Source of the DNA: a virus
Lineage: Duplodnaviria > Caudoviricetes
Reading direction: 5' to 3' (one strand)
Virus record (IMG/VR): IMGVR_UViG_3300042901_002137
Location: 5,865-69,864 of that record
Length of the DNA stretch: 64,000 nucleotides
The notes under the pieces were generated by a model that was given only the letters and a program-made list of their open reading frames with translations, had not been told where the DNA came from and made no database searches. Numbering within the stretch: position 1 is the first letter of the stretch; each line of letters begins with the position of its first letter. Below, one piece after another: positions 3,762-62,754 of the stretch. The position numbers and the translations under genes are program-made.

Positions 3762-3810
3762 TTATTATTTGGTAATTCAAATTTCTGTTGTATATTTGTA
3801 GTATCAAAAT

Positions 3811-4985: not shown

Positions 4986-5039
4986 CCAATTTTTTTATTT
5001 GATAATATAATTATTATTTGTATATTTGTATGACAATAA

Positions 5040-5528: not shown

Positions 5529-6938
5529 ATGAAATCGGTACTTAACGAAGAAATCAATTCAATAAAAAAATTGATGAAAATTACAGAAGAAGAAATTTCT
5601 GTAAAAGATGGTGAGTATAGTATCATTACTACTGATGGTGATGCAACCAGTACTGATAAGATTAACAAAGCTTTATTAGATGATATTGAGGCAGCGGCAA
5701 AAATGGCAGGAGTTAAACCTGTAATTACCACAGCATCGTCAGGACACTCAGAAAAAACCATTAGTGGGACTCGTAGTAGACATTCAGACCGAACTGCAGT
5801 TGATATTGCCATTATAGATGGTATTAACTCAGGTGGTGCTAAAGATGAAAAATCAGGAAGTTCTAATTTTAGAAATAAAGGAAACAAACTAAAAGATGCT
5901 TTGGTTTCCATGGGTTATAAGTTAAACTCTGAATCAGGTAATCCAAAGGCAGTCTTGTGGCAGACAAATTTGGGTGGTAATCATTATAACCATTTACACG
6001 TTTCAAACACAAATCCATCACCATCAACAACAACTACACCAAACACAACAGAACCTAGTAAAGAAAATCCATTGTCAAATATTTTTGGTTCAAAAGGAAC
6101 TGAAAACATATCAGGAGCCGTAGATTTATTATCTAAACTTCAGAAAAAGTTTTATTTACAAGAAGAATCAGTTTCATATACCAAACGTATTTCTAAAGAA
6201 AATAAAAATATCGTATCTTATGTTGACGGTGAAATTGTTAATGTAAATTATGGTTCATGTGAAGATTATGTAACAATATATTTTGTAAAAAAGTTCAAAG
6301 GTTATTTCTTAACTTATTGTGGTATTGAGAACATAAGAGTAAGAGAAGGTCAAAAAGTTGAGCCAAACAGTATTTTAGGATACAGCTTAGACCCTGTAAC
6401 AATATATTTTTATGACTCAAACGGTAAACCATTACCGATATCATACTTTTTTGAGATAACTGATAGAGTAAAAAAAGATGATGGTGAAAAGTCGCAAAGA
6501 AAATCTAAAGATAGGCAAACCGCAACAGGTAGAGCGTTTGACAGAGCACAAAAAGAAAATTTGGCAGGATTTACTCTATCAATGGCAAATCATTTTTTGA
6601 ATCCGTTCACCAATCGTTATGATGATAAAGGAAAAAAAGTTTCATCCGCACCTGTATTGAACCCATTTAAAAAAGAATTCTATACCCAAATGGTTAGAGA
6701 TAATTTTGAACCTTGGGATGAGAATAAAAATTATAGTGAAGATGATATGGTTACTTATAATGGTGACACATACGTTGCCATACGAGATGTTAAATCAAAT
6801 AGTAAAAACCCTAAAGATTCAGGTGATTGGGAATTAGAGAAAATTCAAGGTAATATTACTCAACTATACAAGTACGATACTCAGTCACCCAACGGAGTGA
6901 ATGAAGAGATTAACCGAATCAAAGAGTTGTTAAAATAA
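5529..6938 (+). CDS. modular cell-wall hydrolase: M15-like peptidase, degenerate M23-like domain, CBM5/12-like domain
   Basis: SRHSDRTAVDI and HYNHLHVS zinc-peptidase motifs; VREGQKVEPNSILG; WDENKNY..DDMVTYNGDTY..W; NEEIN.IK.L at both termini; TATTTAT 5516-5522. Confidence 0.65.
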   Translation: MKSVLNEEINSIKKLMKITEEEISVKDGEYSIITTDGDATSTDKINKALLDDIEAAAKMAGVKPVITTASSGHSEKTISGTRSRHSDRTAVDIAIIDGINSGGAKDEKSGSSNFRNKGNKLKDALVSMGYKLNSESGNPKAVLWQTNLGGNHYNHLHVSNTNPSPSTTTTPNTTEPSKENPLSNIFGSKGTENISGAVDLLSKLQKKFYLQEESVSYTKRISKENKNIVSYVDGEIVNVNYGSCEDYVTIYFVKKFKGYFLTYCGIENIRVREGQKVEPNSILGYSLDPVTIYFYDSNGKPLPISYFFEITDRVKKDDGEKSQRKSKDRQTATGRAFDRAQKENLAGFTLSMANHFLNPFTNRYDDKGKKVSSAPVLNPFKKEFYTQMVRDNFEPWDENKNYSEDDMVTYNGDTYVAIRDVKSNSKNPKDSGDWELEKIQGNITQLYKYDTQSPNGVNEEINRIKELLK

Positions 6939-7875: not shown

Positions 7876-8024
7876 TGCTCTTCCTCCTCCTCTTCACAAT
7901 TACACATAGGACTAGGTGCTAAAATAATTAAAAGTGCCCACCATGGATTTTGTGTCATCCATATGCACATTCCGATAATACCTAAAAAGGCTAAACTGTA
8001 AATTACGTTTCCAATATTTTTCAT
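7872..8024 (-). CDS. small two-TM protein with acidic tail (50 aa)
   Basis: MKNIGNVIYSLAFLGIIGMCIWMTQNPWWALLIILAPSPMCNCEEEEEEQ*; TAATG overlap. Confidence 0.55.
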   Translation of the reverse strand: MKNIGNVIYSLAFLGIIGMCIWMTQNPWWALLIILAPSPMCNCEEEEEEQ

Positions 8025-8626
8025 TATAGTAGATGTTTTAAAATTTTTTCTTTGATTCCTGATTGTTTGATTCCTTCGTTTGACATGGGGGTATGTACAA
8101 AGTTTGTAAGTCCGGGTTTTTCATCAAGACCGTCTTTATGGGCGAAATGTTTAGACAAGTATTCAACTGACATATCCAAGTCATCAATGGCAACCCAATT
8201 GGTAACTTCAGGATGTTTATTCAGCCAATCCAAGATTTCAATTGAACGTTCAAGTTCCAAGTCTGCTCTAAAACGTAATACTCTCCACAGTTCAGGTTCA
8301 ATCTCTTTAGTTGATGAGGTAAATGCAATCGGTGCTTTTATGATACCCTGTGATAGGTAGTATTCACCAAGTTCCTCTAATGAAGCGTGGTATCTCCAAT
8401 CTGATGATACAACAATTTCAGCACCTGTCTCTTCTAAAATAGAGTTTAGAACTTTAATCGCTTTATCGTTAAAGTTGTCAAAACGGTACTCAACAGGTAA
8501 TTCATAAGCCATTGCGTCAGTAGGTATTAGACCTTTCTTAATACCCTCACGTTTTTTCTTGTTTCTTCCACCCCAATTTTCTGAAAGGCAGATTACACCG
8601 TCGTTATCTAAAAATATAACTTTCAT
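8024..8626 (-). CDS. HAD-superfamily phosphatase (Swiss-Army-knife RNA-repair type)
   Basis: FLDNDGV, VVSSDWR, WVAIDD motifs; TATATTTG 8631-8638. Confidence 0.8.
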   Translation of the reverse strand: MKVIFLDNDGVICLSENWGGRNKKKREGIKKGLIPTDAMAYELPVEYRFDNFNDKAIKVLNSILEETGAEIVVSSDWRYHASLEELGEYYLSQGIIKAPIAFTSSTKEIEPELWRVLRFRADLELERSIEILDWLNKHPEVTNWVAIDDLDMSVEYLSKHFAHKDGLDEKPGLTNFVHTPMSNEGIKQSGIKEKILKHLL

Positions 8627-8911: not shown

Positions 8912-9373
8912 TTACTCACGATAAGAATGATTAATTGTTACTCTCACACAAGTCTGAGGTTGACCCTCATTCATGAGAAAGTTGTTTATGTATCCCATAA
9001 TATTGGCAGAACCAATTGGGTTGGCTGAGTGAGTGTAAACAACAGGGAATGGCATCTTATGTTGTTTCTTATCTGAACGATTTAACATAATCCAAGATTC
9101 ATCCTTATCATAAAAATGATTCACCAACCACTTGGCACAATCGTAACCTGTCTTTTCTTGGATGTTTGAATAATCCAAGGTGTAGTTTGGAGATACGTTG
9201 TCAAAATATTCTTTCATCGCCGTATCACCCAAATCATGGTCCAAAGAAATTACTTCAATATTTTCCAATCCAAGTTCTTCAACTTTGTTTACAAACTCAT
9301 CAAAGTTGGTTACTAAAATCCATTCCTTATCGTTAGGAATTCTTACGTCGTCAAGATAGATACGGTGTTTCAT
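8912..9373 (-). CDS. cyclic-phosphate-processing receiver-domain protein
   Basis: IYLDDVR.P, ISLDHDLG, TGYDCAKWL, HSANPIG motifs. Confidence 0.75.
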   Translation of the reverse strand: MKHRIYLDDVRIPNDKEWILVTNFDEFVNKVEELGLENIEVISLDHDLGDTAMKEYFDNVSPNYTLDYSNIQEKTGYDCAKWLVNHFYDKDESWIMLNRSDKKQHKMPFPVVYTHSANPIGSANIMGYINNFLMNEGQPQTCVRVTINHSYRE

Positions 9374-9658: not shown

Positions 9659-9714
9659 ATTAATTATTGTACAAATATACTATAGATAGTATAATAATCA
9701 AAATTTATTTTTTA

Positions 9715-10734: not shown

Positions 10735-11451
10735 TTAATAAGTTTTTAGTTTCATACTTTTTATAACTCTTTCAGCAACTTTTTTGTGTCCTGATGGGTG
10801 CATGTGACAAGTCCAATCACCACAATCAGTTCTAATCACCACCCGAGTATCAATTACTGTCGCATTTTTTATACTGTCCATTAAAATTCTTTGGTATTTT
10901 GAATATGCCTTTGGGTAGAACTCCTGACCTTTGATTGGTCTAACACATTCTTCAGCATTGAAACCTGTCAATACCACAGGTTTTACACCCTTTGAATTAC
11001 AGATGTTAACAATCTTCTGAACATCCTTAACAACTTGATATGGATTTCTGTTTCCGTGAATATCGTTAGCACCACCGTAGATAAAACAATAATCAAAATT
11101 GGATGTAATACTTGTCTTAGCAACATTAACCATCCAAGGTAGGTGTTTACCAATAACTGCGGTATTGTTCATTCTTAATCCTGTTTTCTTACAGACAATT
11201 ACTTGCCAACCCCAATTATGATTTGCGGTGTGGGAATCACCAATGAAGAGTGCGTTCTTACCGTTAACATCTACAATGGTATCTAACCCTTGTTTTGGTA
11301 TAGGTGTTAGAATGGTATCAGAAATTACAATTTGATTTGGTGTAAAGTAACCTGGTACAAAATTCAGTTTACCTGACAACAGTAGAGAATATAATATTGC
11401 AAATGCAAAAAAACCGATGGTAAAAATGGAAAGTTCTGTTTTGTTTTTCAT
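10735..11451 (-). CDS. SGNH/GDSL hydrolase with N-terminal TM
   Basis: FIGDSHT, GGANDI, DWTCHMHP motifs; start trimmed to MKNKTEL (upstream extension is tRNA-Cys). Confidence 0.85.
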   Translation of the reverse strand: MKNKTELSIFTIGFFAFAILYSLLLSGKLNFVPGYFTPNQIVISDTILTPIPKQGLDTIVDVNGKNALFIGDSHTANHNWGWQVIVCKKTGLRMNNTAVIGKHLPWMVNVAKTSITSNFDYCFIYGGANDIHGNRNPYQVVKDVQKIVNICNSKGVKPVVLTGFNAEECVRPIKGQEFYPKAYSKYQRILMDSIKNATVIDTRVVIRTDCGDWTCHMHPSGHKKVAERVIKSMKLKTY

Positions 11452-11452
11452 G

Positions 11453-11526
11453 AGGTCCTGAGCAGATTCGAACTGCTGAATAAGAGTTTTGCAGACTCCC
11501 CCCTTAAGCCACTTGGGTACAGGACC
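11453..11526 (-). tRNA. tRNA-Cys(GCA)
   Basis: Cloverleaf, GGAGT-CTGCAAA-ACTCT, U73. Confidence 0.95.
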
Positions 11527-11527
11527 G

Positions 11528-11580
11528 TGGAGTGCAGTGGGAGCTAGCATCCCTGAGGCATCTGCACAAGTTACTCCTCT
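11528..11580 (-). ncRNA. structured His-Cys spacer
   Basis: GGA/TCC, GTGCAG/CTGCAC, GGGA/TCCC nested stems. Confidence 0.4.
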
Positions 11581-11584
11581 TTAG

Positions 11585-11658
11585 GGTGAATAATGGGAAT
11601 CGAACCCATGGCACACGGAACCACAATCCGTTGCTCTACCTACTGAGCTATATCCACC
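11585..11658 (-). tRNA. tRNA-His(GTG)
   Basis: Cloverleaf with G-1:C73, ACGGA-TTGTGGT-TCCGT. Confidence 0.95.
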
Positions 11659-11667
11659 ATTTAAATA

Positions 11668-11840
11668 GTAGTAGTTGAATTTATCAGGAATCTCGCCTTA
11701 GCAACCTCAAGAGGGCCCAGCTTCACACACCATTAGAGAGTTGGGATTTACATTAATACAATTAAGATTAAATACCTATCCTTAGTGTGTACCCTTGTGT
11801 CACGTCTCTCCACGCTTATCAACCTACACTTTTTTACTAC
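11668..11840 (-). ncRNA. ~175-nt structured RNA, unassigned
   Basis: GTAGT/ACTAC and GTTGA/TCAAC closing stems, CACAC/GTGTG inner rod; no convincing ORF. Confidence 0.5.
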
Positions 11841-11846
11841 CATTTG

Positions 11847-11985
11847 TAGTCAGGACAGGAATTGAACCTGTTCCAAGGGACCGCTCCCTTATCAATCACA
11901 CAAGGCAATTACTCCTTGTTTTACCTGCCGTGTAATGTCTTGTGGCCACTCCACATTACCAAAGGTCTCCAAAGACCACCTGACT
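11847..11985 (-). ncRNA. tRNA-like RNA A (no anticodon arm; three-hairpin insert)
   Basis: AGTCAGG/CCTGACT-A acceptor, GTC-TTTGGA-GAC D-arm, ACAGG-TTCAATT-CCTGT T-arm. Confidence 0.75.
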
Positions 11986-12008
11986 ATGTTCGAGGATGAG
12001 AAATCCTC

Positions 12009-12224
12009 TGTGTTGTAGGTCGCCCAAATAAATTTGTCCTTTATCCTCAACTCAAGCAATTCCTTTCTCAAGGGAACAACACAATATCTTTGATAATGAT
12101 GGGATACCCGTCTCGTCCCAATCTTAACAGCTTCCTGAGTTTTACGAGGCCTCGGCTGAGGGTGGTGAATTCCGATTCCACTCTGGATTGTCGACATCCG
12201 TTGAATGGGGAAAACCATTATCAA
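12009..12224 (-). ncRNA. two-domain structured RNA between the tRNA-like RNAs
   Basis: TTGATAATG/CATTATCAA (12216-12224 with 12090-12098) and TGTGTTGT/ACAACACA (12076-12083 with 12009-12016) closing stems. Confidence 0.5.
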
Positions 12225-12227
12225 TTG

Positions 12228-12326
12228 TAGTCAGGACAGGATTCGAACCTGTAAACCATTGCATTAGATGGGTGAACATCTGTATGGTATTTTCACCTAT
12301 TGCGTCTACCATTCCGCCACCTGACT
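12228..12326 (-). ncRNA. tRNA-like RNA B (Leu-type D-arm, aberrant anticodon region)
   Basis: Same AGTCAGG/CCTGACT-A acceptor and ACAGG/CCTGT T-stem as A; GCG-GAATGGTAGA-CGC D-arm. Confidence 0.75.
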
Positions 12327-12329
12327 ATG

Positions 12330-12606
12330 GTTGTCAGTCTCTCCTGACCGTCACCCCCACTCCGACGGTATTAGCCTTCATCGTGATGCTGGGTTAGCAA
12401 TTTAAAAATGAAAACCTCCTTCCACGCTCACCGTGGGTTTAGATTTTACAGATGGTTTGTTCCCCATCACCTGTTATGAGTGCACCATAGAGCAGGGTCC
12501 ATTACAGAGTACCTTGAGTCATTCAAGCTTCAGTTGGGTAATTACTCCCATGAAGTCAAGGTTCCTTTCATCCGCGCTAATCGGACTTCCGTAAGGAGTT
12601 TTCCAT
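12330..12606 (-). ncRNA. multi-hairpin structured RNA downstream of tRNA-Phe
   Basis: ATGGAAAACTCC (12595-12606) pairs with GGAGGTTTTCAT (12408-12419); inner CCTTGA/TCAAGG, CCACG/CGTGG, GATGG/CCATC; CCGTC/GACGG and GTCAG/CTGAC hairpins. Confidence 0.55.
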
Positions 12607-12608
12607 TT

Positions 12609-12685
12609 TGGTGGTGTGAACGGGAATCGAACCACGTGGCACGTAGGGTTTCAACCTACTGCTCTACCTGCTGAGCTACCACACC
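12609..12685 (-). tRNA. tRNA-Phe(GAA)
   Basis: GTAGG-TTGAAAC-CCTAC; encoded CCA; one bulged T in T-stem. Confidence 0.85.
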
Positions 12686-12701
12686 ATTTTAATTTACTAA
12701 G

Positions 12702-12775
12702 TGGACCGTGGGAGACTCGAACTCCCGACCCCCTGCGTGCAAGGCAGGTGTTCTAGCCAACTGAACTAACAGCCC
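12702..12775 (-). tRNA. tRNA-Ala(TGC)
   Basis: G3.U70, CCTGC-CTTGCAC-GCAGG. Confidence 0.95.
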
Positions 12776-12847
12776 TTAGTGATGACTTATCGTTTCAAAG
12801 AAAGCTCTTACAAACCCTCTCCAAAACTTTAAAAGTTTCTCTTTCAT
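12776..12847 (-). CDS. 23-aa amphipathic peptide between tRNAs (absent from ORF track)
   Basis: MKEKLLKFWRGFVRAFFETISHH*; stop abuts tRNA-Ala 5' end. Confidence 0.45.
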   Translation of the reverse strand: MKEKLLKFWRGFVRAFFETISHH

Positions 12848-12863
12848 TTCTATAAGTATTTTG

Positions 12864-12935
12864 CGGTCCGTGCGGGAATCGAACCCGCCCCACAGCCGTG
12901 ACAGGGCTGCATCCTAGCCGCTAAACGAACGGACC
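12864..12935 (-). tRNA. tRNA-Asp(GTC)
   Basis: CAGCC-CTGTCAC-GGCTG. Confidence 0.95.
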
Positions 12936-12950
12936 GTTATTTTTACCATC

Positions 12951-12997
12951 ATGTCAAAGAACTCCGAAGTATTACCTTCTTTGTTGATACAAAATTA
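12951..12997 (-). promoter_or_regulatory. -7 promoter element (TAATTTTG) followed by boxA-like GTTCTTTGACAT
   Basis: caaaatta 12990-12997; atgtcaaagaac 12951-12962. Confidence 0.6.
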
Positions 12998-13008
12998 GAT
13001 AAATTTTC

Positions 13009-13512
13009 TCAATTCACCAAATCTATCTCGTAGATTTTTTCACAATTTTTCTCAACCCAACCCTTACCAACAGATATGTGTTTGGATGATTCAGACATTG
13101 TTTCCAACTTAACTTTTACCTCGTCCAAAAAAACTGAAGTTTCACATTTCCAAATGGTTTTACAATCAAGGCCATTTTCTTTGTCAAATAAGGCGAAGAA
13201 AATTGCGTTGTTACGCTCAATGCGATGAAGGTTATCTTTGTGAATTCGGTCAAGTTGAAAACTACCACCTTCTTTACAAGATAGGTATTCGTATTTTTCT
13301 TTACCGTCCTTGGAGTAAGCATCCGCACCGTGTTTTGTCTTGTGACAATCATGACCCAAGATTTCGGAAATCATCCACTCTTTGATAAAACCTGGTGTCA
13401 ACAAGTCTTGCTCAAAACCGTTTTTATTTTTCAATAGGTTCAAAGCACCTATCAAAATGTTTAACGGGTTGGACTCGTTTTCAAGTTTGTCTAAGAGTTC
13501 TTGAGAATTCAT
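13009..13512 (-). CDS. PD-(D/E)xK nuclease resembling PvuII-type restriction endonuclease
   Basis: GADAYSKDGKEKYEYLS and HISVGKGWVEKNCEKIY parallel PvuII GNDAVDNAGQEYELKS and KIPVKYVMEHGTKIY (from memory). Confidence 0.55.
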   Translation of the reverse strand: MNSQELLDKLENESNPLNILIGALNLLKNKNGFEQDLLTPGFIKEWMISEILGHDCHKTKHGADAYSKDGKEKYEYLSCKEGGSFQLDRIHKDNLHRIERNNAIFFALFDKENGLDCKTIWKCETSVFLDEVKVKLETMSESSKHISVGKGWVEKNCEKIYEIDLVN

Positions 13513-13630: not shown

Positions 13631-14344
13631 ATGTCTTATTTAAATACACCTACCCCAATTGTTGAAGCCTTCATTAGAGGAAACTTCTTAAGGAATCAAG
13701 AGGATTCTTTTGACAAAAAATTCCCATGTTACATATTTGGTATGTCATCTATACCAGCTCAAGCACCATTATTTCACTTTATGATGGAAGACGGTGGAAT
13801 ATGGTGGAGGATGCCAATACATGCATTTTGTTGGAAAGAAGATGCACCACAACAGGAATTAGACGAACTCGTTCTTTGGGACTCATTTACTTATCACGTC
13901 GGGGTGACGGCATTTCCGATATTAAAAAACAAAACCTGTAAATTTACATCACGAAGGAGGGTCCAATATTCAGGTAGATATTTATTTACTTTAGATTGGG
14001 GTAGTTCAGATGATATGAGTGATACAGATTTTGGGTTGAGTGAATTTCCGTCACAACATAAATGCGGACATTTTATCCAAATGGATAACGGTAATTTTGC
14101 AATTCAACCTAACAACAGATTAATTATGCACGACCCATCATTTACTGTCAAGGAAGATATTGTTATAAATAGAAAATATAATACAACCCTTTGGACTGCA
14201 GAAAGAAATGGAAGATGGGTTACACCCGATACCGATGTATTTAACTACGACCATACTGATTTAGAGAGTGGTGAATCCAACAAACAAAGGTCTGAAGAAT
14301 ATGATAAATTAGATTCTAAATATAAAGATGAAAATAATATTTGA
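13631..14344 (+). CDS. conserved T4-like phage hypothetical protein
   Basis: MSYLN...LFH.M..GG..WR.PIHAF...HKCGH..Q.DNGNFA.QPNNR pattern. Confidence 0.7.
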   Translation: MSYLNTPTPIVEAFIRGNFLRNQEDSFDKKFPCYIFGMSSIPAQAPLFHFMMEDGGIWWRMPIHAFCWKEDAPQQELDELVLWDSFTYHVGVTAFPILKNKTCKFTSRRRVQYSGRYLFTLDWGSSDDMSDTDFGLSEFPSQHKCGHFIQMDNGNFAIQPNNRLIMHDPSFTVKEDIVINRKYNTTLWTAERNGRWVTPDTDVFNYDHTDLESGESNKQRSEEYDKLDSKYKDENNI

Positions 14345-14957
14345 CCATCTACATGGTCATATTAAAAATGATAGAGTTTTTTGTGAAGCCTTTGTAATTC
14401 CTGAAGGAGAAACCGAAGATGAGCTTTTAGAACTTGGATTTCTTCCAAACCTTCAACCACCATTATATTGGTATCAAGCAAAAAGTTGTAGAATCAATAA
14501 TGATAATGTGGTATTATCATATAAAAGAAAAAAAATATTATCTCAACTAATAATAGAAATTCTTCCATACTCTAATATAAAAAATGAAGTAGATTCATTC
14601 TTCCTAAATTATTTTAAAATTAAAAATTTTGATTTAGTCAATTATTATAACAATAACTCACAATATGAAGATTTAAAAATTATGAAAGTTATGTTTAATG
14701 ATGAAGTTGTTGCCTATACTAGATTCAGAGAATTTGAAAAAGTACTATTAGGATTAGAAACCGCAATGGTTCAAAATTTAAATAAATTTTCATTAGGTAA
14801 AGACTGTATTCTATTACTCAGTAATTATGGGAAACTTTATGATAAAAATTTTCTATACATTTACGAATCATACGAAAATTATTTTCCCTACAAATTAGAA
14901 ATAACAGGGGCCGAATACTGGGAGGGAGAAAAATGGATTACGTCACAATATTTATAG
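14328..14957 (+). CDS. aminoacyl-tRNA-protein transferase-like (ATE1/Bpt family)
   Basis: LL.LGF, SCRI, DEVVAY, FSLGKDCIL, FLYIY, YK....EYW...W follow ATE/Bpt motif order. Confidence 0.65.
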   Translation: MKIIFDHLHGHIKNDRVFCEAFVIPEGETEDELLELGFLPNLQPPLYWYQAKSCRINNDNVVLSYKRKKILSQLIIEILPYSNIKNEVDSFFLNYFKIKNFDLVNYYNNNSQYEDLKIMKVMFNDEVVAYTRFREFEKVLLGLETAMVQNLNKFSLGKDCILLLSNYGKLYDKNFLYIYESYENYFPYKLEITGAEYWEGEKWITSQYL

Positions 14958-17729: not shown

Positions 17730-17776
17730 ACTTCAAAGATACAACACGTTTTTTAATTACACAAATATTTTTTTAG

Positions 17777-18238: not shown

Positions 18239-18571
18239 CACGATTTTTAATCCTTGTTGAATTTACATGAGAATACCCGAACTAGCAATATTACGCTGAT
18301 ACCACTTATCACAAATGGCTACAAACGCAAAATTCATAATGAGTTCAAAATTAGTTTTCATGTCTTTATAATTATACCACAAATATACAAAAGTTTTTTA
18401 ACTTGTCAAATTATTTTTCTTCTTTACCATATTCTCGGGCTAATTTAAGGGCGATACCCACAAACCAACCACCCATGAACCCAAATAATATTGGATAATT
18501 ATTATTAACCAAAAGGATAATGACACCCATTATGGCAATTATATTGGCGTAGAAATATTTTGTGAATTTAA

Positions 18572-19376: not shown

Positions 19377-19420
19377 ATTACACTACAAATATATGTTAAA
19401 TTTTTGAGAGTCCAAACGAT

Positions 19421-21001: not shown

Positions 21002-21036
21002 TTGTTAATACAAAGATAAAAATTATTGTGTGAAAA

Positions 21037-21234
21037 TCAAATACTAACCACCCTTTTTAAGGGAGATTGGTTCTTTTCATCAAGTAACTGAATGAAAAAT
21101 CTACCATATACTTCTGACCTATCCGATTTCGGATTCTTATTCATGTAGTCACATGTTACATCTCTCCAAAGTTCAAAAAACCCATACTCATGGGCCTTGA
21201 AACCGTAATATTCTGAAAGTTCTTCGTTAGTCAT
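21037..21234 (-). CDS. hypothetical protein
   Basis: 65-aa ORF. Confidence 0.6.
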   Translation of the reverse strand: MTNEELSEYYGFKAHEYGFFELWRDVTCDYMNKNPKSDRSEVYGRFFIQLLDEKNQSPLKRVVSI

Positions 21235-21468
21235 GGTAATAATATGTATCTGTTGTTTATAAAAAGTTAATCTTGATTTAACAAGAATACAAATATACTA
21301 TAAAAATCATTTGGTTCCAAACAAATTTTTACTATATTTATGATTATGTTCAATTATTGGAATACATTTTTACATCATCTTGGTACACTAATTTCAAATT
21401 ATAGTGCATCGGATGAGCACTCTGTATTTCGGACCCATGAACGCATAAAATAAACGGAAAAAAGTGTT

Positions 21469-21521: not shown

Positions 21522-22013
21522 ATGCAACAAGTGTTGGTATTAAACTATGACTACACCCCTTTGAACGTTACATCGCTTCAAAGAGGATTTGTATTGGTGG
21601 ATAAAGGAAAAGCTGAAGTCATCAAACAAGATGAGAATCCTATCGTTACAACGTATAAGACATACGTACGCCCACTTATTATCCGTTTGCTTCGTTATAT
21701 CAATTACCGTAGTTCCGGTATTAGTGTTAACCGTCATAGAATCTTCAAAAGAGATGGACACCAGTGTGGATATTGCGGTTCTACTCGTGATTTAACGATT
21801 GACCACATTCAACCTCGTTCAAGAGGGGGTCGTAACACTTGGACCAACTTGGTAACTTGTTGTTCAAAATGTAATTTAAAGAAGGGTAATAAAACACCCG
21901 AAGAGTCTCGTATGATACTAAGAGTTAAACCAACTCAACCAACATTTATTAACGACTACGATGGGTTAAATAATCTATGGGATGCTGTTAATCAATCTTT
22001 TCTTTCTAACTAA
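21522..22013 (+). CDS. HNH endonuclease
   Basis: VLVLN..Y.PL; CGYCG...TIDHIQPRSRGG.NTWTNLVTCC..CN..K; TATATTTG 21510-21517. Confidence 0.9.
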   Translation: MQQVLVLNYDYTPLNVTSLQRGFVLVDKGKAEVIKQDENPIVTTYKTYVRPLIIRLLRYINYRSSGISVNRHRIFKRDGHQCGYCGSTRDLTIDHIQPRSRGGRNTWTNLVTCCSKCNLKKGNKTPEESRMILRVKPTQPTFINDYDGLNNLWDAVNQSFLSN

Positions 22014-22039: not shown

Positions 22040-22333
22040 ATGGAATCACAAAATAATGAACTAACTCAAAACGACTTATTAAACGCATCTATTGTGTTCT
22101 CACAGGCAATCTCTCTTATGTTGGATAATGGCCAAGGTATTATCGTTGATATTTTACCTGAAATGGGAATTGTTCTTCCTGAAGAAACTGATAAAGTTGC
22201 GGTATTCAAACTTAACAACGCTGTTCACATTCAAAAGTATGATGGTGATTTAGAAGCTGGCACTTCGGTTAACATTAACGAACCCGAAGAAGAAACCCAA
22301 GAAAATCAAGAAACCCAAGAAACTCAAGAATGA
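22040..22333 (+). CDS. hypothetical protein
   Basis: 97-aa ORF with (Q)E(T/N)QE repeats. Confidence 0.7.
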   Translation: MESQNNELTQNDLLNASIVFSQAISLMLDNGQGIIVDILPEMGIVLPEETDKVAVFKLNNAVHIQKYDGDLEAGTSVNINEPEEETQENQETQETQE

Positions 22334-24009
22334 TAGTATTAGGTTTTTCTGTCGGTCACGACAAAGGAGCTGCACTTATCAAAGATGGTGAGGTTCTAAT
22401 TGCAATTACTCAAGAAAGATTATCTCGGGTAAAAAATGATGGTGCATATCAAGGTGGTGTAATTCCCTTGGATTCAATTTTATATTGTTTGAATGAATAC
22501 AAATACACCCTTGATGATGTTGATTTGATTGTCTACAGTACAACTGAAGTTACTGATACAACTTATGAACAACTTCAAAAGTTTTGGAATCTACCAAGAA
22601 AGAAGTTGATTCATATTCCACACCACTTGGCTCACGCTTATTCAACATTCTTTTCATCAGGAATGGAAGAATCTGCAATCATAGTGGCGGATGCATCAGG
22701 AAGTATTTTGAATTCAGATAATCAAACAAAAAATTGGTATCCTGAAGAATACGAAAAAGTTTTAAGTGGACAACAAGACTTGACTGAAGGTATTTCACTT
22801 TACCATTTAACCAAGTCAGGTTACACTGAAGTCTATAAAAAATGGATTATATCTCCTCCCGATATTAACACTAATGAATGTACTTCGGTTGGTACCATGT
22901 ATTCTGAAGGTTCAGTTCAACTTGTTTATGAACCAAGAACCCAAACTTGGCCCGCAGGTAAACTGATGGGACTGGCATCATACGCCAATCAAGATATTGT
23001 GGATGAGGCACCAAAATTTGCCCATTGGACTGATTCAACTCAAACCGATATTTGCATCCCAAATAATACAATCTACCCAAATGTGACTTGGAAATCTGAC
23101 TTCTTCTCAAGGGCTTGTGTTGCGGGAATTTATCAGAGAGAACAAGAGAGAATTTCTGTTATGTTATCTGAATTAGCAAAAAAATTAACAAAATCAAACA
23201 ATGTTTGTACTGCAGGTGGTTCTTTTTTAAATTGTAATTCAAATGAACGAATCTTAAAATCAGGTCTTTACGATGGTTGTTTCTTTTTACCACCGTCAGA
23301 TGATAGTGGAATCCCATTAGGTTGTGCATGGTATGCATATCAACAAGTTGCGGATATTGAAAAGACGGAAATGATTTCCCCTTATTTAGGTAAAACATAT
23401 TCTGAGGAAAATTTCCTAAAAGCATTAGAAGATTTCCCAAACTGTGAAGCAACCCATTATCCAAATTTTGATGATTTAGTTGAATTTATCTCAGATAAAT
23501 TAGTTAACAATAGAGTTATTGGTTGGTATCAAGGTGGTTCTGAAATTGGTCCAAGAGCTCTTGGTAATAGGTCAATCATCTCATCTCCAATACCTCATTG
23601 GATGAAAGACCATATCAATCATGATATTAAATTCAGAGAGTGGTATCGTCCTTTTGCACCCGCAGTATTGTTTGAACATCAAAGTGAAATTTTTGAATTA
23701 GATACCTACTCACCACACATGTTGGTTACCAGTCAAGTTAAACCTGAATGGTGGGACAGAATTCCTGCCGTTACTCACATTGATAAATCCGCAAGATATC
23801 AATCAGTAACAAAGGACAATAATCCAAGATTTCATCAAATAATTTCTTCATTCTATAACAAAACAGGGGTACCCGTATTGTTGAATACAAGTTTCAATGG
23901 ACCGAGAGAACCTATTGTTGAAACCCCACATGATGCCATTAGAGCTCTTCACAACTGTTATTTAAATTATCTTGTTATAGGAAATTACGTTATAGTTCAA
24001 AATAGATAG
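22330..24009 (+). CDS. carbamoyltransferase (NodU/CmcH/TobZ family) 1
   Basis: GHD..AA, ERLSR.K, HH.AHA, GKLMGLA, GPRALGNRS, RPFAP, LNTSFN. Confidence 0.92.
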   Translation: MIVLGFSVGHDKGAALIKDGEVLIAITQERLSRVKNDGAYQGGVIPLDSILYCLNEYKYTLDDVDLIVYSTTEVTDTTYEQLQKFWNLPRKKLIHIPHHLAHAYSTFFSSGMEESAIIVADASGSILNSDNQTKNWYPEEYEKVLSGQQDLTEGISLYHLTKSGYTEVYKKWIISPPDINTNECTSVGTMYSEGSVQLVYEPRTQTWPAGKLMGLASYANQDIVDEAPKFAHWTDSTQTDICIPNNTIYPNVTWKSDFFSRACVAGIYQREQERISVMLSELAKKLTKSNNVCTAGGSFLNCNSNERILKSGLYDGCFFLPPSDDSGIPLGCAWYAYQQVADIEKTEMISPYLGKTYSEENFLKALEDFPNCEATHYPNFDDLVEFISDKLVNNRVIGWYQGGSEIGPRALGNRSIISSPIPHWMKDHINHDIKFREWYRPFAPAVLFEHQSEIFELDTYSPHMLVTSQVKPEWWDRIPAVTHIDKSARYQSVTKDNNPRFHQIISSFYNKTGVPVLLNTSFNGPREPIVETPHDAIRALHNCYLNYLVIGNYVIVQNR

Positions 24010-24010
24010 T

Positions 24011-25606
24011 ATGAGCACAATCTACGGAATCTACACAGGTTACCATAGTCAATCTATCTCTTTAGTTAAAGATGGTGAAATAATAAACTGTCTTGAAGAG
24101 GAGAGAATGACCCGATTAAAAGCGGGTGATAATCACGACTGTTTACCTGAAAAGTCACATGCAAAGATTGAAGAAGTCACCGGTTTGAAATTTGAAGATT
24201 CTGATTACCGTGTTGATGTTTTCCCAAGTCATGAACCTTACACAAGTTTTATTTCTAACGGTAAACCTTATGAAATAATCTCTCACCACACAGCACACTG
24301 TGCCGGTGCCTATTTCACTTCGGGAATGGACGGTAAAGTTTTGACTTTGTCTTATGATGGTGGTGGTCATGAACACCTAATGAAAATTTTTCTATGTGAA
24401 GATGGTAAGATGTTAGAGATATTCAATCTTGAACAATCAACATCAGGAAGTTTAGCACACATTTGGGCATTTGTCACATCAGGTATTATGGGTTATGACC
24501 AATACATGCAAGGTAAATGGAAAATGTGTAAGGATGAAGGTAAGCTCATGGGTATGGCACCTGAAGGACACTACGATGAAAAGATTCATAATCTACTATC
24601 AAGTGTTATAAAGTATGAGAATTTTAATTTCTCACCTTCAGCAACCGCAGAAAAAACCAAGTTCCTCATAGATTCAATGTATCATGATGGTCTGATGAAA
24701 ACACCAAAACAAAGAGAAATTATTTCATATAATCTTCAAAAACTAACCGAAGATTTAATGATTGAATTCTTTAATGATATTCATAAAAAATTTCCTGAGT
24801 ACACCAAAATCGCAGTTGCCGGTGGATTGTTTGCAAATGTCAAACTAAACCAAAAGTTAAATGAATTGGATTGGTTAGACGAATTGTTTGTATACCCACC
24901 AATGGGTGATGAAGGATTGTCTTTAGGTGCAGCTCTTTGGAAATCAAATCAATTGGGTGAATTAAAAAAACCTTTGAAATTGACAAATTTTTCATTTGGT
25001 CCAAGTTATGATGAAGAATCCATTTATGAGTTCTCAAGAGAATTTGATTTCATTAGAACGGGATTAGATTATGATGAAATTGCCAAAGACATTCATTCAG
25101 GAAAAATCATCGGATGGTTTGATGGGGGTATGGAGTTTGGACCAAGAGCGTTAGGTAATAGAAGTTTATTGGTTAGACCAACTCAATTAGAGACCCATAA
25201 AGTTCTTAATCGTAGATTAAACAGGTACGACACAATGCCGTTCGCACCGATGGTCTTGGATGAGTATTTTGAAGATTTGTTTACAACCAACAAATCAAAA
25301 TATTCCGCTCAGTTCATGACAATATGTTACTCAACAAAAACTGAGTGGATGGACAAAATTCCTGCGGTGGTTCAGAAATCAGATAAAACCGCACGACCAC
25401 AGGTAATTACAAGTGAGAATAACCCAAAAATATATCAGTTGATGAAACAATATTTTGAATTATCGTCAATTCCCGCGATATTAAATACATCATTCAATAC
25501 TCACGGAGAACCAATAATTGAAAACCCCTCACACGCCTTTAATCATTTGAAAAATAAAGTTGTTGATAAATTAGTTATAGGAAATTATGTATACCAAAAT
25601 AGATGA
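24011..25606 (+). CDS. carbamoyltransferase (NodU/CmcH/TobZ family) 2
   Basis: EER..R.K, HHTAH, EGKLMGMA, AGG.F.N, GPRALGNRS, PFAP, LNTSFN. Confidence 0.92.
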   Translation: MSTIYGIYTGYHSQSISLVKDGEIINCLEEERMTRLKAGDNHDCLPEKSHAKIEEVTGLKFEDSDYRVDVFPSHEPYTSFISNGKPYEIISHHTAHCAGAYFTSGMDGKVLTLSYDGGGHEHLMKIFLCEDGKMLEIFNLEQSTSGSLAHIWAFVTSGIMGYDQYMQGKWKMCKDEGKLMGMAPEGHYDEKIHNLLSSVIKYENFNFSPSATAEKTKFLIDSMYHDGLMKTPKQREIISYNLQKLTEDLMIEFFNDIHKKFPEYTKIAVAGGLFANVKLNQKLNELDWLDELFVYPPMGDEGLSLGAALWKSNQLGELKKPLKLTNFSFGPSYDEESIYEFSREFDFIRTGLDYDEIAKDIHSGKIIGWFDGGMEFGPRALGNRSLLVRPTQLETHKVLNRRLNRYDTMPFAPMVLDEYFEDLFTTNKSKYSAQFMTICYSTKTEWMDKIPAVVQKSDKTARPQVITSENNPKIYQLMKQYFELSSIPAILNTSFNTHGEPIIENPSHAFNHLKNKVVDKLVIGNYVYQNR

Positions 25607-26231: not shown

Positions 26232-26263
26232 TATATTTGTACTGTAAACTAAAAATGTTAAAA

Positions 26264-26941
26264 ATGAACTACGGTAAAGAATTTGAAAAGTATTGGGTAA
26301 ATCACTTAGGTAAAGGTTCTCAGAACCTTCATAACTATCAATCACAGATTGAATCATCATTAACCCCTTATGTTTTGGAAGAAAGGGAGTTACGAGCAAC
26401 TCAGATTGATATCTTCTCACGATTGATGAGAGACCGAATTCTTTGGGTTGCGGGTGGAGTTGATGACAACATGTCCACCATAGTGCAAGCACAGTTGATG
26501 TTTTTAGACTCTGTTGATTCCACGGACATCACGATGCACATCGATAGTCCTGGTGGTAGTGTAAAGTCAGGTCTTTCTATTGTTGACGTTATGGATTACA
26601 TTAAATGTGATATCCGAACTGTAAATACAGGGATGGCAGCGTCTATGGGTTCTGTTTTGTTAGGTGCTGGTACCAAAGGTAAACGTTCATCATTACGTTT
26701 CTCTAAAACAATGTTACACCAAACCTCAGGGGGCGCTGGCGGTAACATCCAAGACGCTCGTATTAATTTTCAAGAATGGGAAAAGGTCAACAAAATCTTG
26801 TTTGAACTCTTGGGTTCTTACTGTGGAAAAACTGCAGAACAAGTTGAGTTAGACTCTACTCGTGACTTTTGGTTATCTGCCGAGGAAGCCGTGGAATATG
26901 GTATTATTGACGAGGTTGTTAAAACGAAAAAGAGGGGTTAA
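26264..26941 (+). CDS. clpP: ATP-dependent Clp protease proteolytic subunit
   Basis: IDSPGGSV, AASMGS (Ser), LHQ (His), RDFW (Asp); TATATTTG 26232-26239; start set to MNYGKEF. Confidence 0.95.
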   Translation: MNYGKEFEKYWVNHLGKGSQNLHNYQSQIESSLTPYVLEERELRATQIDIFSRLMRDRILWVAGGVDDNMSTIVQAQLMFLDSVDSTDITMHIDSPGGSVKSGLSIVDVMDYIKCDIRTVNTGMAASMGSVLLGAGTKGKRSSLRFSKTMLHQTSGGAGGNIQDARINFQEWEKVNKILFELLGSYCGKTAEQVELDSTRDFWLSAEEAVEYGIIDEVVKTKKRG

Positions 26942-36068: not shown

Positions 36069-36141
36069 ATATGATTACTTTCTTAATAAATACTTTCATA
36101 CTCACATTTGTTTTATAATTCAATTTTACTATCTTTGTCCT

Positions 36142-36645: not shown

Positions 36646-37740
36646 ATGGAACTTTCGTTAAACATACTAAACAAATACCACGAGGAAGGACTGTTGTACA
36701 AACAAGTACATCCGACTTTACCGTTGACTATTTGGAACTACTCAGAAAAAGTTCAGTATGAAGGTCTATGGGACGAGGTTACCATGTCTTGTCGTGGACT
36801 AATCACCGACAATGTAGGAAACATAGTTGTTCAACCATTCAAAAAATTCTTCAATTATGAAGAGTTGGTTGGTAAGGGTGTAATACCTGAAAAAGGTGAT
36901 TATGTCTATGTTCAAGAAAAAATAGACGGGTCTTTGGGTATCTTGTTCAACTATGATGATGAGTGGATTATGGCAACTCGTGGTTCCTTTACCTCAGAAC
37001 AAGCCGTAATGGGACTTGAAATTGTAAAAGAAAAATACTTTTTGGATTCTTGGATGAAGGAATACGCCTACTTGTTGGAAATTATTTATCCTGAAAACCG
37101 TATCGTTGTTAATTACGGAGTTGAGAAAGTGACATTTCTATCTGCAGTGTTGAATGGGACTTACAAGTGGAATTCCACTGATGATACCGAACTACATTGG
37201 AGTACCTCTCTTATGATATTTAAATCTAATGGAATCCACGAGTCAGATGTTGTAAAGACTGAACAACACTTCAATTTTTCAGACGAACTTTACAAAAGTT
37301 TGAAAGAAAAGAATGAAACCAATAAAGAAGGTTTTGTTTTGAGGTTCCAACCAGGAAACTTTAGAATGAAAATCAAATTTGAAGAGTATGTTCGTTTACA
37401 TAAGATAATGACTAATTTATCAACAACCGCAGTTTGGGAAGTATTATCTAATGGTGGAAACATGGATGAATTACTTAAAGATGTACCTGATGAGTTCTAT
37501 GGTAAAATCAAAGAGTATGAAGATGAACTTAAGTTTATGTTCAACTCATTGAGTAATGATTATGGTATTCACTTTAGAGATATCCAAAACATGATGGATA
37601 AGGTTGGTGGTGACCGTAAGAACTTTGCAAATGTTGCAAAACAATACAAATACCCGTCATTATTGTTTGGGATGTTGGATGGTAAAGATGTTTCACCTAT
37701 TATTTGGAAAATTGTAAAACCTGAATTTAAAAAATTATAA
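36646..37740 (+). CDS. T4 Rnl1-like RNA ligase
   Basis: CRGL, FKKFFN, EKIDGSL, ATRGSF, EIIYPENRIV, EGFV, KIK motifs; TATCTTTG 36634-36641. Confidence 0.9.
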   Translation: MELSLNILNKYHEEGLLYKQVHPTLPLTIWNYSEKVQYEGLWDEVTMSCRGLITDNVGNIVVQPFKKFFNYEELVGKGVIPEKGDYVYVQEKIDGSLGILFNYDDEWIMATRGSFTSEQAVMGLEIVKEKYFLDSWMKEYAYLLEIIYPENRIVVNYGVEKVTFLSAVLNGTYKWNSTDDTELHWSTSLMIFKSNGIHESDVVKTEQHFNFSDELYKSLKEKNETNKEGFVLRFQPGNFRMKIKFEEYVRLHKIMTNLSTTAVWEVLSNGGNMDELLKDVPDEFYGKIKEYEDELKFMFNSLSNDYGIHFRDIQNMMDKVGGDRKNFANVAKQYKYPSLLFGMLDGKDVSPIIWKIVKPEFKKL

Positions 37741-61588: not shown

Positions 61589-62754
61589 TACTTCGTTTTC
61601 TTTACACAATTTGGATATCTTTTACCAAACATTGTCTTCATACCCTTTTGAGTATATCCCTTCCAACATCTTTCAGTTAATTCAGATTCATTTTGTTCTT
61701 GTTTGCTTGAATTATCGTACATTTTAATACTTCTCAAAATTTGATTGTATTTTTCATCCTTTAATGTAAATTGTCCTTCATCATTCCACCATTGAATTGC
61801 TTCAGGTTTTAGATATTTTATCGCATCAAACACCCACTCTTGACCCTTTTCAGGATGTTTGAGATTCCAAAGAGTTATTATATTGGAATCTCCTTCCCAA
61901 TTTGATTTTTGTTTTTTTCCGTTACCAAATGGTTCAGTTATAAAAATAATTCCTTTATCAACTAAATCAAAAAAGTCCAAATCTTTTCTGTTGGTTTGTT
62001 TAGATTCACTCTGTTCTTGTTTACCAAAATGACTAAATACTTTTCTAATGTCTTTTGGAAGTGAGTTAATAGGTATTATCTTTGCTTTGATTGTTTCTAA
62101 ACCTTTTCTTACCGCCTTTTGTGCTCTGTGATGTCCATCTATAATTGATATAAATTCACCATCATTATCGACAAATATTAGTATTGGATATTGTAAATCA
62201 GCACTTTCTATTTTTTTAATCTCATCTTCATCTCCATCCCAAGTTAATAGGTGTGGTTTAAGTTCTTCTACCGATATTTTTTCCACAGGTATATCTTCCG
62301 TGGCGTTTAATAAATCCATAAGGGTTATTTTATCACCTTTATCATTTTCCCATGATGTGTCGTGTAAACCTTCTTTTTGTAATCTTATTGTTTTTTGTTT
62401 TGATTGTTCTTTTTTACCTTCAATATAATCAAGACCTCGTTTTAATCTTTCTTTTGTTTCAGGGTCTTTTGCGTTTTGATATGCGGCTCTAACTCTTTGA
62501 TGAATCAAATTAATAATCTGAGATTGTCTATTATGTGGTTTTGACTTGAAACTTTCTTTATTCAAAGTATCGATAATATCTTCTTTGGTTCTGAATTTTA
62601 CAGATACGGTATCACTTGGATTTTCATCCGTATACAATCTTCTATCAGACCCTTCAGGTTTTTTTCCTGTTCCCACTTTTGGGTCACTTTCATTTATAAC
62701 TTTCTTAAGTAACGAAATAAATTCTAATTCTGTTAGTCTAATTACTTTTTTCAT
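61588..62754 (-). CDS. mosaic protein: LTE leader, LYTDENP domain, ParB/Srx-like domain, CWKGY motif
   Basis: YPILI...IIDGHHR.QKA; RCWKGY..G.K...GK.YPNCV; repeated KQEQ(S/N)ES linkers. Confidence 0.7.
   Translation of the reverse strand: MKKVIRLTELEFISLLKKVINESDPKVGTGKKPEGSDRRLYTDENPSDTVSVKFRTKEDIIDTLNKESFKSKPHNRQSQIINLIHQRVRAAYQNAKDPETKERLKRGLDYIEGKKEQSKQKTIRLQKEGLHDTSWENDKGDKITLMDLLNATEDIPVEKISVEELKPHLLTWDGDEDEIKKIESADLQYPILIFVDNDGEFISIIDGHHRAQKAVRKGLETIKAKIIPINSLPKDIRKVFSHFGKQEQSESKQTNRKDLDFFDLVDKGIIFITEPFGNGKKQKSNWEGDSNIITLWNLKHPEKGQEWVFDAIKYLKPEAIQWWNDEGQFTLKDEKYNQILRSIKMYDNSSKQEQNESELTERCWKGYTQKGMKTMFGKRYPNCVKKTK

Follow-up and report, generated by a model that had tools for sequence, protein, structure and literature searches.

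What fills the 951 nucleotides (nt) that separate tRNA-Phe from tRNA-His on the minus strand of a phage tRNA cluster? We have addressed this question in a stretch of 64,000 nt from IMG/VR virus record IMGVR_UViG_3300042901_002137 (Caudoviricetes; positions 5,865 to 69,864 of the record), referred to below as the window, whose coordinates are used throughout. A first-pass annotation had proposed for this locus an RNA-only operon of structured, unexplained RNAs punctuated by tRNAs. We find that the gap is packed with RNA modules, separated by linkers of 2-6 nt, which follow tRNA-Phe in the order extended freshwater-1 RNA, shell B (a tRNA-Leu-shaped element), family C, S4 (a cassette whose core varies), shell A and family E. 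We read the locus as one transcription unit of a jumbo phage, probably with a Bacteroidota host, in which five tRNAs and at least five to six structured RNA genes would be released by tRNA processing, and we put the probability of this reading at roughly three in four. The order of the tRNAs (Asp, Ala, Phe, His, Cys, all on the minus strand) is as first annotated, and the gap is indeed richer in G+C (0.42-0.50) than the flanking genes (0.25-0.39). The features are listed below in the 5′ to 3′ order of the minus strand; the tRNAs were called by both ARAGORN and Rfam, and ORF denotes an open reading frame.

12990-13021, minus: Bacteroidota-type promoter motif TTTG-N20-TAATTTTG, ~55 nt upstream of tRNA-Asp
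12935-12863, minus: tRNA-Asp (GTC)
12862-12776, minus: AT-rich Asp-Ala spacer, with a 23-codon mini-ORF overlapping a 16-bp hairpin
12775-12701, minus: tRNA-Ala (TGC)
12685-12609, minus: tRNA-Phe (GAA), CCA encoded
12606-12406, minus: extended freshwater-1 RNA, ~200 nt, seven helices; Rfam core at 12506-12444, and covariation
12405-12327, minus: S2, an AU-rich linker and two hairpins (ACCGUC/GACGGU; GUCAG-GAGAGA-CUGAC), ending 6 nt before shell B
12326-12228, minus: shell B, tRNA-Leu-shaped; acceptor, D and T arms kept, a 47-nt structured insert in place of the anticodon arm
~12224-12085, minus: family C RNA, ~140 nt, closing stem UUGAUAAUG/CAUUAUCAA; covariation
12082-11986, minus: S4 cassette; 5′ arm GUGUUGUUCCCUUGAGAAAGGAA, variable core, 3′ arm ACAACACAGAGGAUUUCUCAUCCUC (ACAACACAGAGGAYUUCUCAUCCUC)
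11985-11847, minus: shell A, tRNA-shaped; acceptor and T arm as in shell B, an altered D hairpin and two extra hairpins
~11842-11663, minus: family E RNA, ~175 nt, five helices and a variable hairpin; covariation
11657-11584, minus: tRNA-His (GTG)
11583-11527, minus: S6, the His-Cys spacer, 57 nt, unsupported as an RNA gene
11526-11452, minus: tRNA-Cys (GCA)

Conserved folds of the freshwater-1, C and E modules

The first module downstream of tRNA-Phe has a catalogued core. The 62-position Rfam model of freshwater-1 (RF02979) matches 12506-12444 over its entire length (model positions 1-62 of 62) at 73.2 bits (E 4.9e-15; gathering score 72), and the model alignment places both adjacent freshwater-1 hairpins there, with the conserved strings UGGACCCUGCUCU and AACAGGUG / AACAGG. 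A 14-mer of the core was used to collect homologues from IMG/VR, giving 58 true homologous loci, and by blastn their similarity to the window runs from ~12633/12595 to 12400. An alignment of 45 of these sequences has a seven-helix consensus, which takes in the long-range stem 12595-12606 / 12408-12419 by which the first-pass annotation had closed this domain, and 28 of its 39 pairs show compensatory changes. Pairing is found in 97.7% of cells, compared with 33-42% when the partners are slid, and the covariation score of 0.512 (0.187 in shuffled alignments) was reached by none of 500 shuffles. Of the two core hairpins, the second covaries, and the first has an outer stem that does not vary among the 45 sequences. 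Conservation and covariation extend ~95 nt upstream and ~40 nt downstream of the core, the extension consisting of the closing stem and four more helices, whereas the Rfam model covers the core alone. The extended RNA also folds better than shuffled sequences do (z score -2.59). In 91% of its instances a tRNA is found no more than 40 nt upstream, and in other phages the RNA sits directly between two tRNAs.

Two further fixed modules are also evident from comparison. Family C was recovered in at least 118 loci by a conserved-pattern search of IMG/VR, and family E in 46 loci that share an exact 21-mer. Compensatory changes affect 16 of the 21 predicted pairs of family C (57 aligned sequences; covariation 0.491, against 0.184 shuffled) and 18 of the 33 pairs of family E (34 sequences; 0.463, against 0.193), and neither score was reached in 500 shuffles. 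Across the three alignments, slid partners pair in only 29-59% of cells. The homologues therefore conserve base pairing with compensatory changes, as the first-pass annotation required of structured RNAs, and its 135-nt, 75-nt and 175-nt domains, which correspond to family C, S4 and family E, all recur in other phages. Its description of the RNAs as unexplained stands in part: one of them has the catalogued core RF02979, while C and E have no match among the 4227 Rfam families, even with the E threshold relaxed to 10. Being conserved and covarying in phage tRNA arrays, the module folds are judged to be real.

Some details of these families are worth recording. The purine loop GGAGAG(A) caps hairpins both in family E (ACGU-GGAGAG-ACGU, ~11800-11787) and in S2 (~12347-12334); in E this loop could instead pair with a downstream invariant CUCUCU, forming a possible pseudoknot. 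Family E also contains a hammerhead-like CUGAUAA, which we considered as a ribozyme motif and rejected: the motif is invariant, an A occupies the position of an essential G, and no Rfam ribozyme matches.

Shells and cassettes with variable inserts

The two elements that the first-pass annotation had called tRNA mimics are real, scoring 42.9 bits (shell B) and 27.9 bits (shell A) with the Rfam tRNA model (RF00005, gathering score 29 bits), and both carry inserts. Shells have a 7-bp acceptor stem, a D arm and a T arm with a loop sequence of the GGTTCRAWTCC type; A and B share the acceptor AGUCAGG/CCUGACU, the discriminator A and the T arm. The D arm of shell B (UGGCGGAAUGGUAGACGC) resembles that of the phage's own tRNA-Leu genes, and shell A is without a Leu-type D arm. 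In the alignment to the tRNA model shell B has 39 nt in place of the anticodon arm; shell A has an 80-nt insert and, on its anticodon-like stem, a 4-nt GCGG loop. The 5-bp anticodon stem and 7-nt loop needed for decoding are missing from both, ARAGORN calls neither of them as a tRNA, and neither shell is predicted to be able to decode. The minimum free energy structure of shell A is a cloverleaf-like fold (z -3.48). An identical copy of shell B is present in another phage locus (L190), and shell A has an 80% homologue in locus L284, in which the acceptor stem is compensated on both strands (AGTCGGT/ACCGACT).

Shells form a large family, present in at least 120 IMG/VR loci. We have identified 308 distinct elements in 392 fetched loci, mostly of 90-110 nt and with up to 12 per locus. 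Their ends are nearly invariant (AGTCAGG/CCTGACT in 266 of the 308), and the T stem is paired in 235 of 250 elements despite changes such as CAGG/CCTG to AGAGG/CCTCT. The inserts are highly diverse: 283 of them fall into 216 clusters, 178 being singletons, and those with relatives are conserved and show compensatory changes. ARAGORN makes tRNA calls in 69 of the 308 elements, with scattered anticodons. Some inserts (L401:3079, L020, L042, L040 and L095) carry an internal T-arm-like hairpin, for example GGUUCGAUUCC or GGUUCGAGUCC, so that a few shells resemble nested or double tRNA elbows.

Two simple origins or roles of the shells were tried and rejected. The 22-mer of the shell 3′ end occurs in 18 contigs among 185,579 species genomes, all from metagenome-assembled genomes (MAGs) and 10 of them labelled Bacteroidota; in all 18 it belongs to an insert-bearing shell and in none to a genuine tRNA, which argues against the shell being a copy of a host tRNA. 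Nor do the shells appear to be leaders of one protein family, since the ORFs that follow them are not of one family.

S4 follows a comparable plan of constant arms around a changing core. The 61 distinct copies in related loci all have different cores, and the hairpins of the arms are compensated: GAGG/CCUC in one hairpin is replaced by AAGG/CCUU, GAUG/CAUC or GAAG/CUUC, and UUCC/GGAA in the other by AUCC/GGAU. In the window S4 ends 4-6 nt before shell A, and a tRNA, a shell or a further S4 is found a few nucleotides 3′ of each copy. S2 has few homologues; it is conserved in loci L130, L144, L284 and L040, and in L284 the stem GTCAG/CTGAC has become CCTCG/CGAGG with the loop kept.

The two shorter spacers of the unit fare differently. 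The first-pass annotation had counted the His-Cys spacer as a 55-nt RNA, a claim we do not uphold: the spacer folds no better than shuffled sequences (z +0.77), and a close relative (L073) has just 6 nt at this place. The Asp-Ala spacer forms a hairpin with a minimum free energy of -19.1 (z -2.62). The mini-ORF annotated there is open over its 23 codons, but neither it nor the spacer has a counterpart in any fetched locus.

Transcription, proposed processing and the alternatives

The modules are close companions of tRNAs. In 390 related loci modules and tRNAs lie on the same strand throughout, no locus has modules on both strands, and the module families often co-occur, arranged as a mosaic among phages. 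A tRNA or shell on the same strand lies within 40 nt of 45-91% of the module instances. The structured-RNA array as first proposed is well supported by comparison: at least five modules show compensatory changes and are located on the tRNA strand 2-6 nt from tRNA or tRNA-like ends.

A scan with the sigma-70 consensus gave no minus-strand promoter. The promoter annotated at ~12990 is better described by the Bacteroides consensus TTTG-N19-21-TAnnTTTG, which is found at 12990-13021; the boxA annotated along with it is unsupported. Twelve such motifs are present in the window, against 2.6 +/- 1.4 expected, and none of 100 shuffles reached 12; they are at 1403-1433, 3768-3798, 4998-5028, 9672-9702, 12990-13021, 17734-17765, 18380-18410, 19386-19416, 21011-21041, 21290-21321, 36107-36137 and 62054-62084. 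Most of them are followed closely by a tRNA or tmRNA cluster of the same orientation, and in the related loci 366 motifs are on the module strand compared with 73 on the other. The enrichment before tRNA clusters suggests that the host is a member of the Bacteroidota and that the tRNA genes are transcribed in many separate units.

No terminator-like site was found on the minus strand inside the unit, and its description as RNA-only is doubtful. A gene for a GDSL-like protein begins at 11451, the base next to tRNA-Cys, without an intervening terminator, and the next minus-strand promoter motif is that at 9672-9702, with none between it and 12990-13021. The unit therefore probably continues into protein genes. 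A mechanically called 271-amino-acid (aa) ORF at 10735-11550 (minus) overlaps tRNA-Cys; the gene itself almost certainly begins with the ATG at 11451, as does its L073 homologue, and its product would then have 238 aa, with a weak match to GDSL-like lipase/acylhydrolase.

Each module is either tRNA-shaped or closes its own ends in a stem beside a tRNA end, which suggests processing from a precursor, and we favor a polycistronic one because of this geometry together with the precedent of phages T4 and T5 (see below). Transcription from the host-type promoter at ~12990 would yield a long precursor; RNase P would cut the 5′ end of every tRNA and shell, and RNase Z or exonucleases, with CCA addition, would finish the 3′ ends. 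The spacers would thereby be freed as discrete, end-protected small RNAs alongside the tRNAs. Co-transcription, cleavage sites, stability and any trans-acting function are what we infer from the sequence.

Several points weigh against this reading. The action of RNase P and RNase Z on modules other than tRNAs is assumed from geometry alone. Better folding than in shuffled controls, which the first-pass annotation had made a test of its proposal, is seen for the extended freshwater-1 RNA and shell A but not for C (z -1.34), S4 (-1.15), S2 (-1.61), B (-1.48) or E (+0.44), and for the whole gap z is -0.69 for the minus and -1.93 for the plus strand. With no signal over the whole gap, energy alone cannot decide, and because the folding energies of C and E are unremarkable, the support for these two families is comparative rather than thermodynamic. 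The comparative evidence has its own limits: helix P5 of freshwater-1 and the 13-pair helix P4 of family E are invariant and hence offer no covariation test, the homologues were gathered by exact-match seeds, which of necessity makes the seed regions invariant, the structures under test were derived from the same alignments, and the shuffle control takes no account of phylogeny.

The alternative that survives best, which we nevertheless regard as unlikely, is that the modules are cis-acting parts of the precursor (acting as leaders, insulators or folding chaperones, or as signals for processing and stability) that govern the output of the neighboring tRNAs and of downstream mRNAs, rather than RNAs with a function of their own. 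It would account for the fact that S4 and S2 always end a few nucleotides before the 5′ end of a tRNA or shell, and it is in keeping with the ORFs that begin within 50 nt after 19% of the shells (11% for random positions), most often at a distance of 15 nt, and with shells that stand alone before genes in some MAG contigs. Yet the extended freshwater-1, C and E modules are large multi-helix folds of 140-200 nt with invariant loops, more than a spacer needs; they move independently, as modules, and are kept in phages with differing neighboring tRNAs (Gly, Leu, Tyr, Ala, Glu, Arg and others). Hundreds of different conserved shell inserts are likewise hard to reconcile with a role of this kind.

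It is very unlikely, in our view, that the shells are selfish or decaying copies of a phage tRNA-Leu gene, as pseudogenes or a tRNA-derived mobile repeat, whose ends are kept by gene conversion or recombination around junk inserts. Their near-invariant ends, their multiplicity within a locus, the large share of singleton inserts and the mosaic arrangement of modules among phages are what such an element would leave behind. In contrast, inserts with relatives are conserved and compensated, both within clusters and between shell A and its L284 homologue, T-stem pairing persists through sequence change, all copies are on the transcribed strand, and no genuine host tRNA with the shell 22-mer exists in the species genomes searched.

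We see a slim chance that the shells are tRNA-Leu mimics charged by leucyl-tRNA synthetase, which would feed or block an enzyme dependent on aminoacyl-tRNA. Leucyl-tRNA synthetase reads the discriminator, the D arm and the elbow, not the anticodon, and the discriminator A and the D arm UGGCGGAAUGGUAGACGC of the shell match those of the phage's own tRNA-Leu genes. A candidate enzyme is encoded nearby by the ORF at 14328-14957 (plus; 209 aa, with 351 homologues at 65-79% identity), whose AF2 model adopts a GNAT fold (mean pLDDT 63, core >80). Its matches in the Protein Data Bank mix acetyltransferases (VipF, AAC) with aminoacyl-tRNA-dependent transferases (FemX, MprF, ATE1, Sba18), tRNA-dependent peptide synthases being among them. 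The ORF has no Pfam or NCBIfam match, however, its structural matches are at TM ~0.4, and the scores of acetyl-CoA acetyltransferases are at least as good. Moreover, shell A has lost the Leu-type D arm, and the shells have A1:U72 as first pair and the 3′ sequence ACAA, with no encoded CCA. That the Leu-like shells are charged or serve as decoys is therefore a lead of low probability.

That part of the gap or unit encodes protein, in the 110-aa ORF at 11892-12224 or the mini-ORF, has next to no likelihood: both frames are open in the window, but the 110-aa ORF, the only sizeable one in the gap, starts with TTG and crosses three independent modules (family C, S4 and shell A), its homologues are evenly spread over the length classes modulo 3 (20/19/18) with stops in all three frames in 31 of 57, so that no reading frame is kept, in agreement with the annotation of the gap as devoid of credible protein, and the mini-ORF has no homologue in the fetched loci.

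Relation to known phage RNAs and possible roles

Arrays of this kind have a precedent. The T4 record places rnaC (species 1) and rnaD (species 2) next to tRNA-Arg, and rnaC ends with a T arm and acceptor like those of a tRNA. In the T5 record, eight genes that abut tRNAs are labelled "stable RNA" or "tRNA-like stable RNA with unknown functions" (RNAI, RNAIII, RNAIV, RNA2H and RNAX, and the tRNA-like RNA1, RNA2 and RNA3); one example is the series tRNA-His / RNAIII / RNAI / RNA1, with gaps of 0-4 nt. As in our window, these are non-coding genes other than tRNAs that lie within the tRNA cluster of a phage, share the strand of the tRNAs and directly adjoin them. The stable RNAs of the T4 and T5 tRNA clusters have been unexplained since the 1970s. 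The modules described here differ from them in belonging to separate and far larger families, from uncultured freshwater phages, and no constant frame with a variable insert, like that of the shells and S4, is annotated for T4 or T5. A blastn comparison of the T4 and T5 RNAs with the modules gave only T-loop or tRNA words of 15-23 nt.

Other known RNAs share single traits with the array. GOLLD and ROOL, to which the locus had been compared, are structured phage RNAs often found near tRNA islands and possibly co-transcribed with them (PMC5737381, PMC12286853). The analogy of context holds, but the RNAs here are of 100-200 nt rather than 500-800 nt, and neither GOLLD (RF01998) nor ROOL is matched in Rfam, whether at the gathering score or with E values of up to 10. 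Like tmRNA, the shells have ends that form an acceptor stem beside a T arm, with a foreign domain replacing the anticodon arm; they differ from it in being without G3:U70, a reading frame and a pseudoknot ring. YrlA likewise joins a tRNA-like module to a functional domain, but its ends lie in the Ro-binding stem, and the YrlA model (RF02553) yields a partial score of 19.7 bits (gathering 69) on tRNA-Ala/Phe, not on the shells. Small RNAs are released from tRNA or tRNA-like precursors by RNase P, E or Z in the E. coli 3′ETS-leuZ sponge and the TMERs of MHV68; these belong to other organisms, have no sequence relation to the modules, and are single short spacers or miRNA hairpins.

Thus the kind of RNA is known from T4 and T5, and, as far as Rfam and the searched papers go, the shell, S4, C and E families are undescribed. 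The literature on freshwater-1 and on non-coding RNAs of phage tRNA arrays contained no description of these four families, and of the tRNA-like candidates mentioned in a 2023 catalogue of viral RNAs (PMC10690425), none could be tied to them. A blastn search against 50,697 named phage records returned tRNA matches only, which indicates that there is no cultured close relative. The source record has 69,864 bases and a CheckV completeness of 21%, so that the full genome would be that of a jumbo phage of ~330 kb if this estimate holds.

ARAGORN finds 27 tRNAs and a tmRNA in the window, and several other genes may be mentioned. The phage tmRNA (1540-1951, plus; 88.5 bits) encodes a long tag, GNTFAKLQAVGLLATEEVTVA, without the usual ALAA-type ending; a ClpP gene is at 26237-26941. 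An HNH endonuclease gene (21522-22013, plus) lies beside tRNA-Pro, comparable with the homing endonucleases in the T4 and T5 tRNA clusters, and two tandem carbamoyltransferase genes (Carbam_trans_N, Carbam_trans_C) occupy 22330-25606 (plus). Within 3 kb of the tRNA and non-coding RNA unit are genes for HAD_SAK_2 (Swiss Army Knife RNA repair HAD domain; 8024-8626, minus) and cREC_REC (cyclic-phosphate processing receiver domain; 8912-9373, minus), and a gene for a T4 Rnl1-like RNA ligase is at 36646-37740 (plus). These RNA-repair-type genes would fit a conflict over tRNAs.

The function of the modules probably concerns the tRNA and translation machinery, or a conflict over that machinery. More speculatively, and with odds well below even, the arrays could be a modular RNA display, in which the shell and S4 frames use host tRNA processing to mass-produce hundreds of exchangeable cargo RNAs that act in trans against host defences. 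We consider this doubtful yet worth stating. The cargo may consist of decoys, antitoxin mimics or aptamers against defences that target RNA or tRNA, or may serve a takeover of translation, with the extended freshwater-1, C and E RNAs as fixed companions. If true, phage RNAs for counter-defence or takeover would form a new class, and the 50-year-old question of the T4 and T5 stable RNAs would be answered.

The only catalogued family in the locus, freshwater-1, has been extended from 62 to ~200 nt, and covariation-backed alignments now exist for three families, along with exact borders of the modules. The RNAs comprise several fixed multi-helix families with tens to more than 100 homologues each and two frame-plus-cargo families with hundreds of inserts. 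The phenomenon is accordingly not confined to two coliphages, and in uncultured freshwater jumbo phages it has expanded into entire repertoires. If the RNAs are only processing aids, a common feature of phage genomes would be explained; if they act on host defence or translation, they would represent a new layer of the conflict between phage and host.

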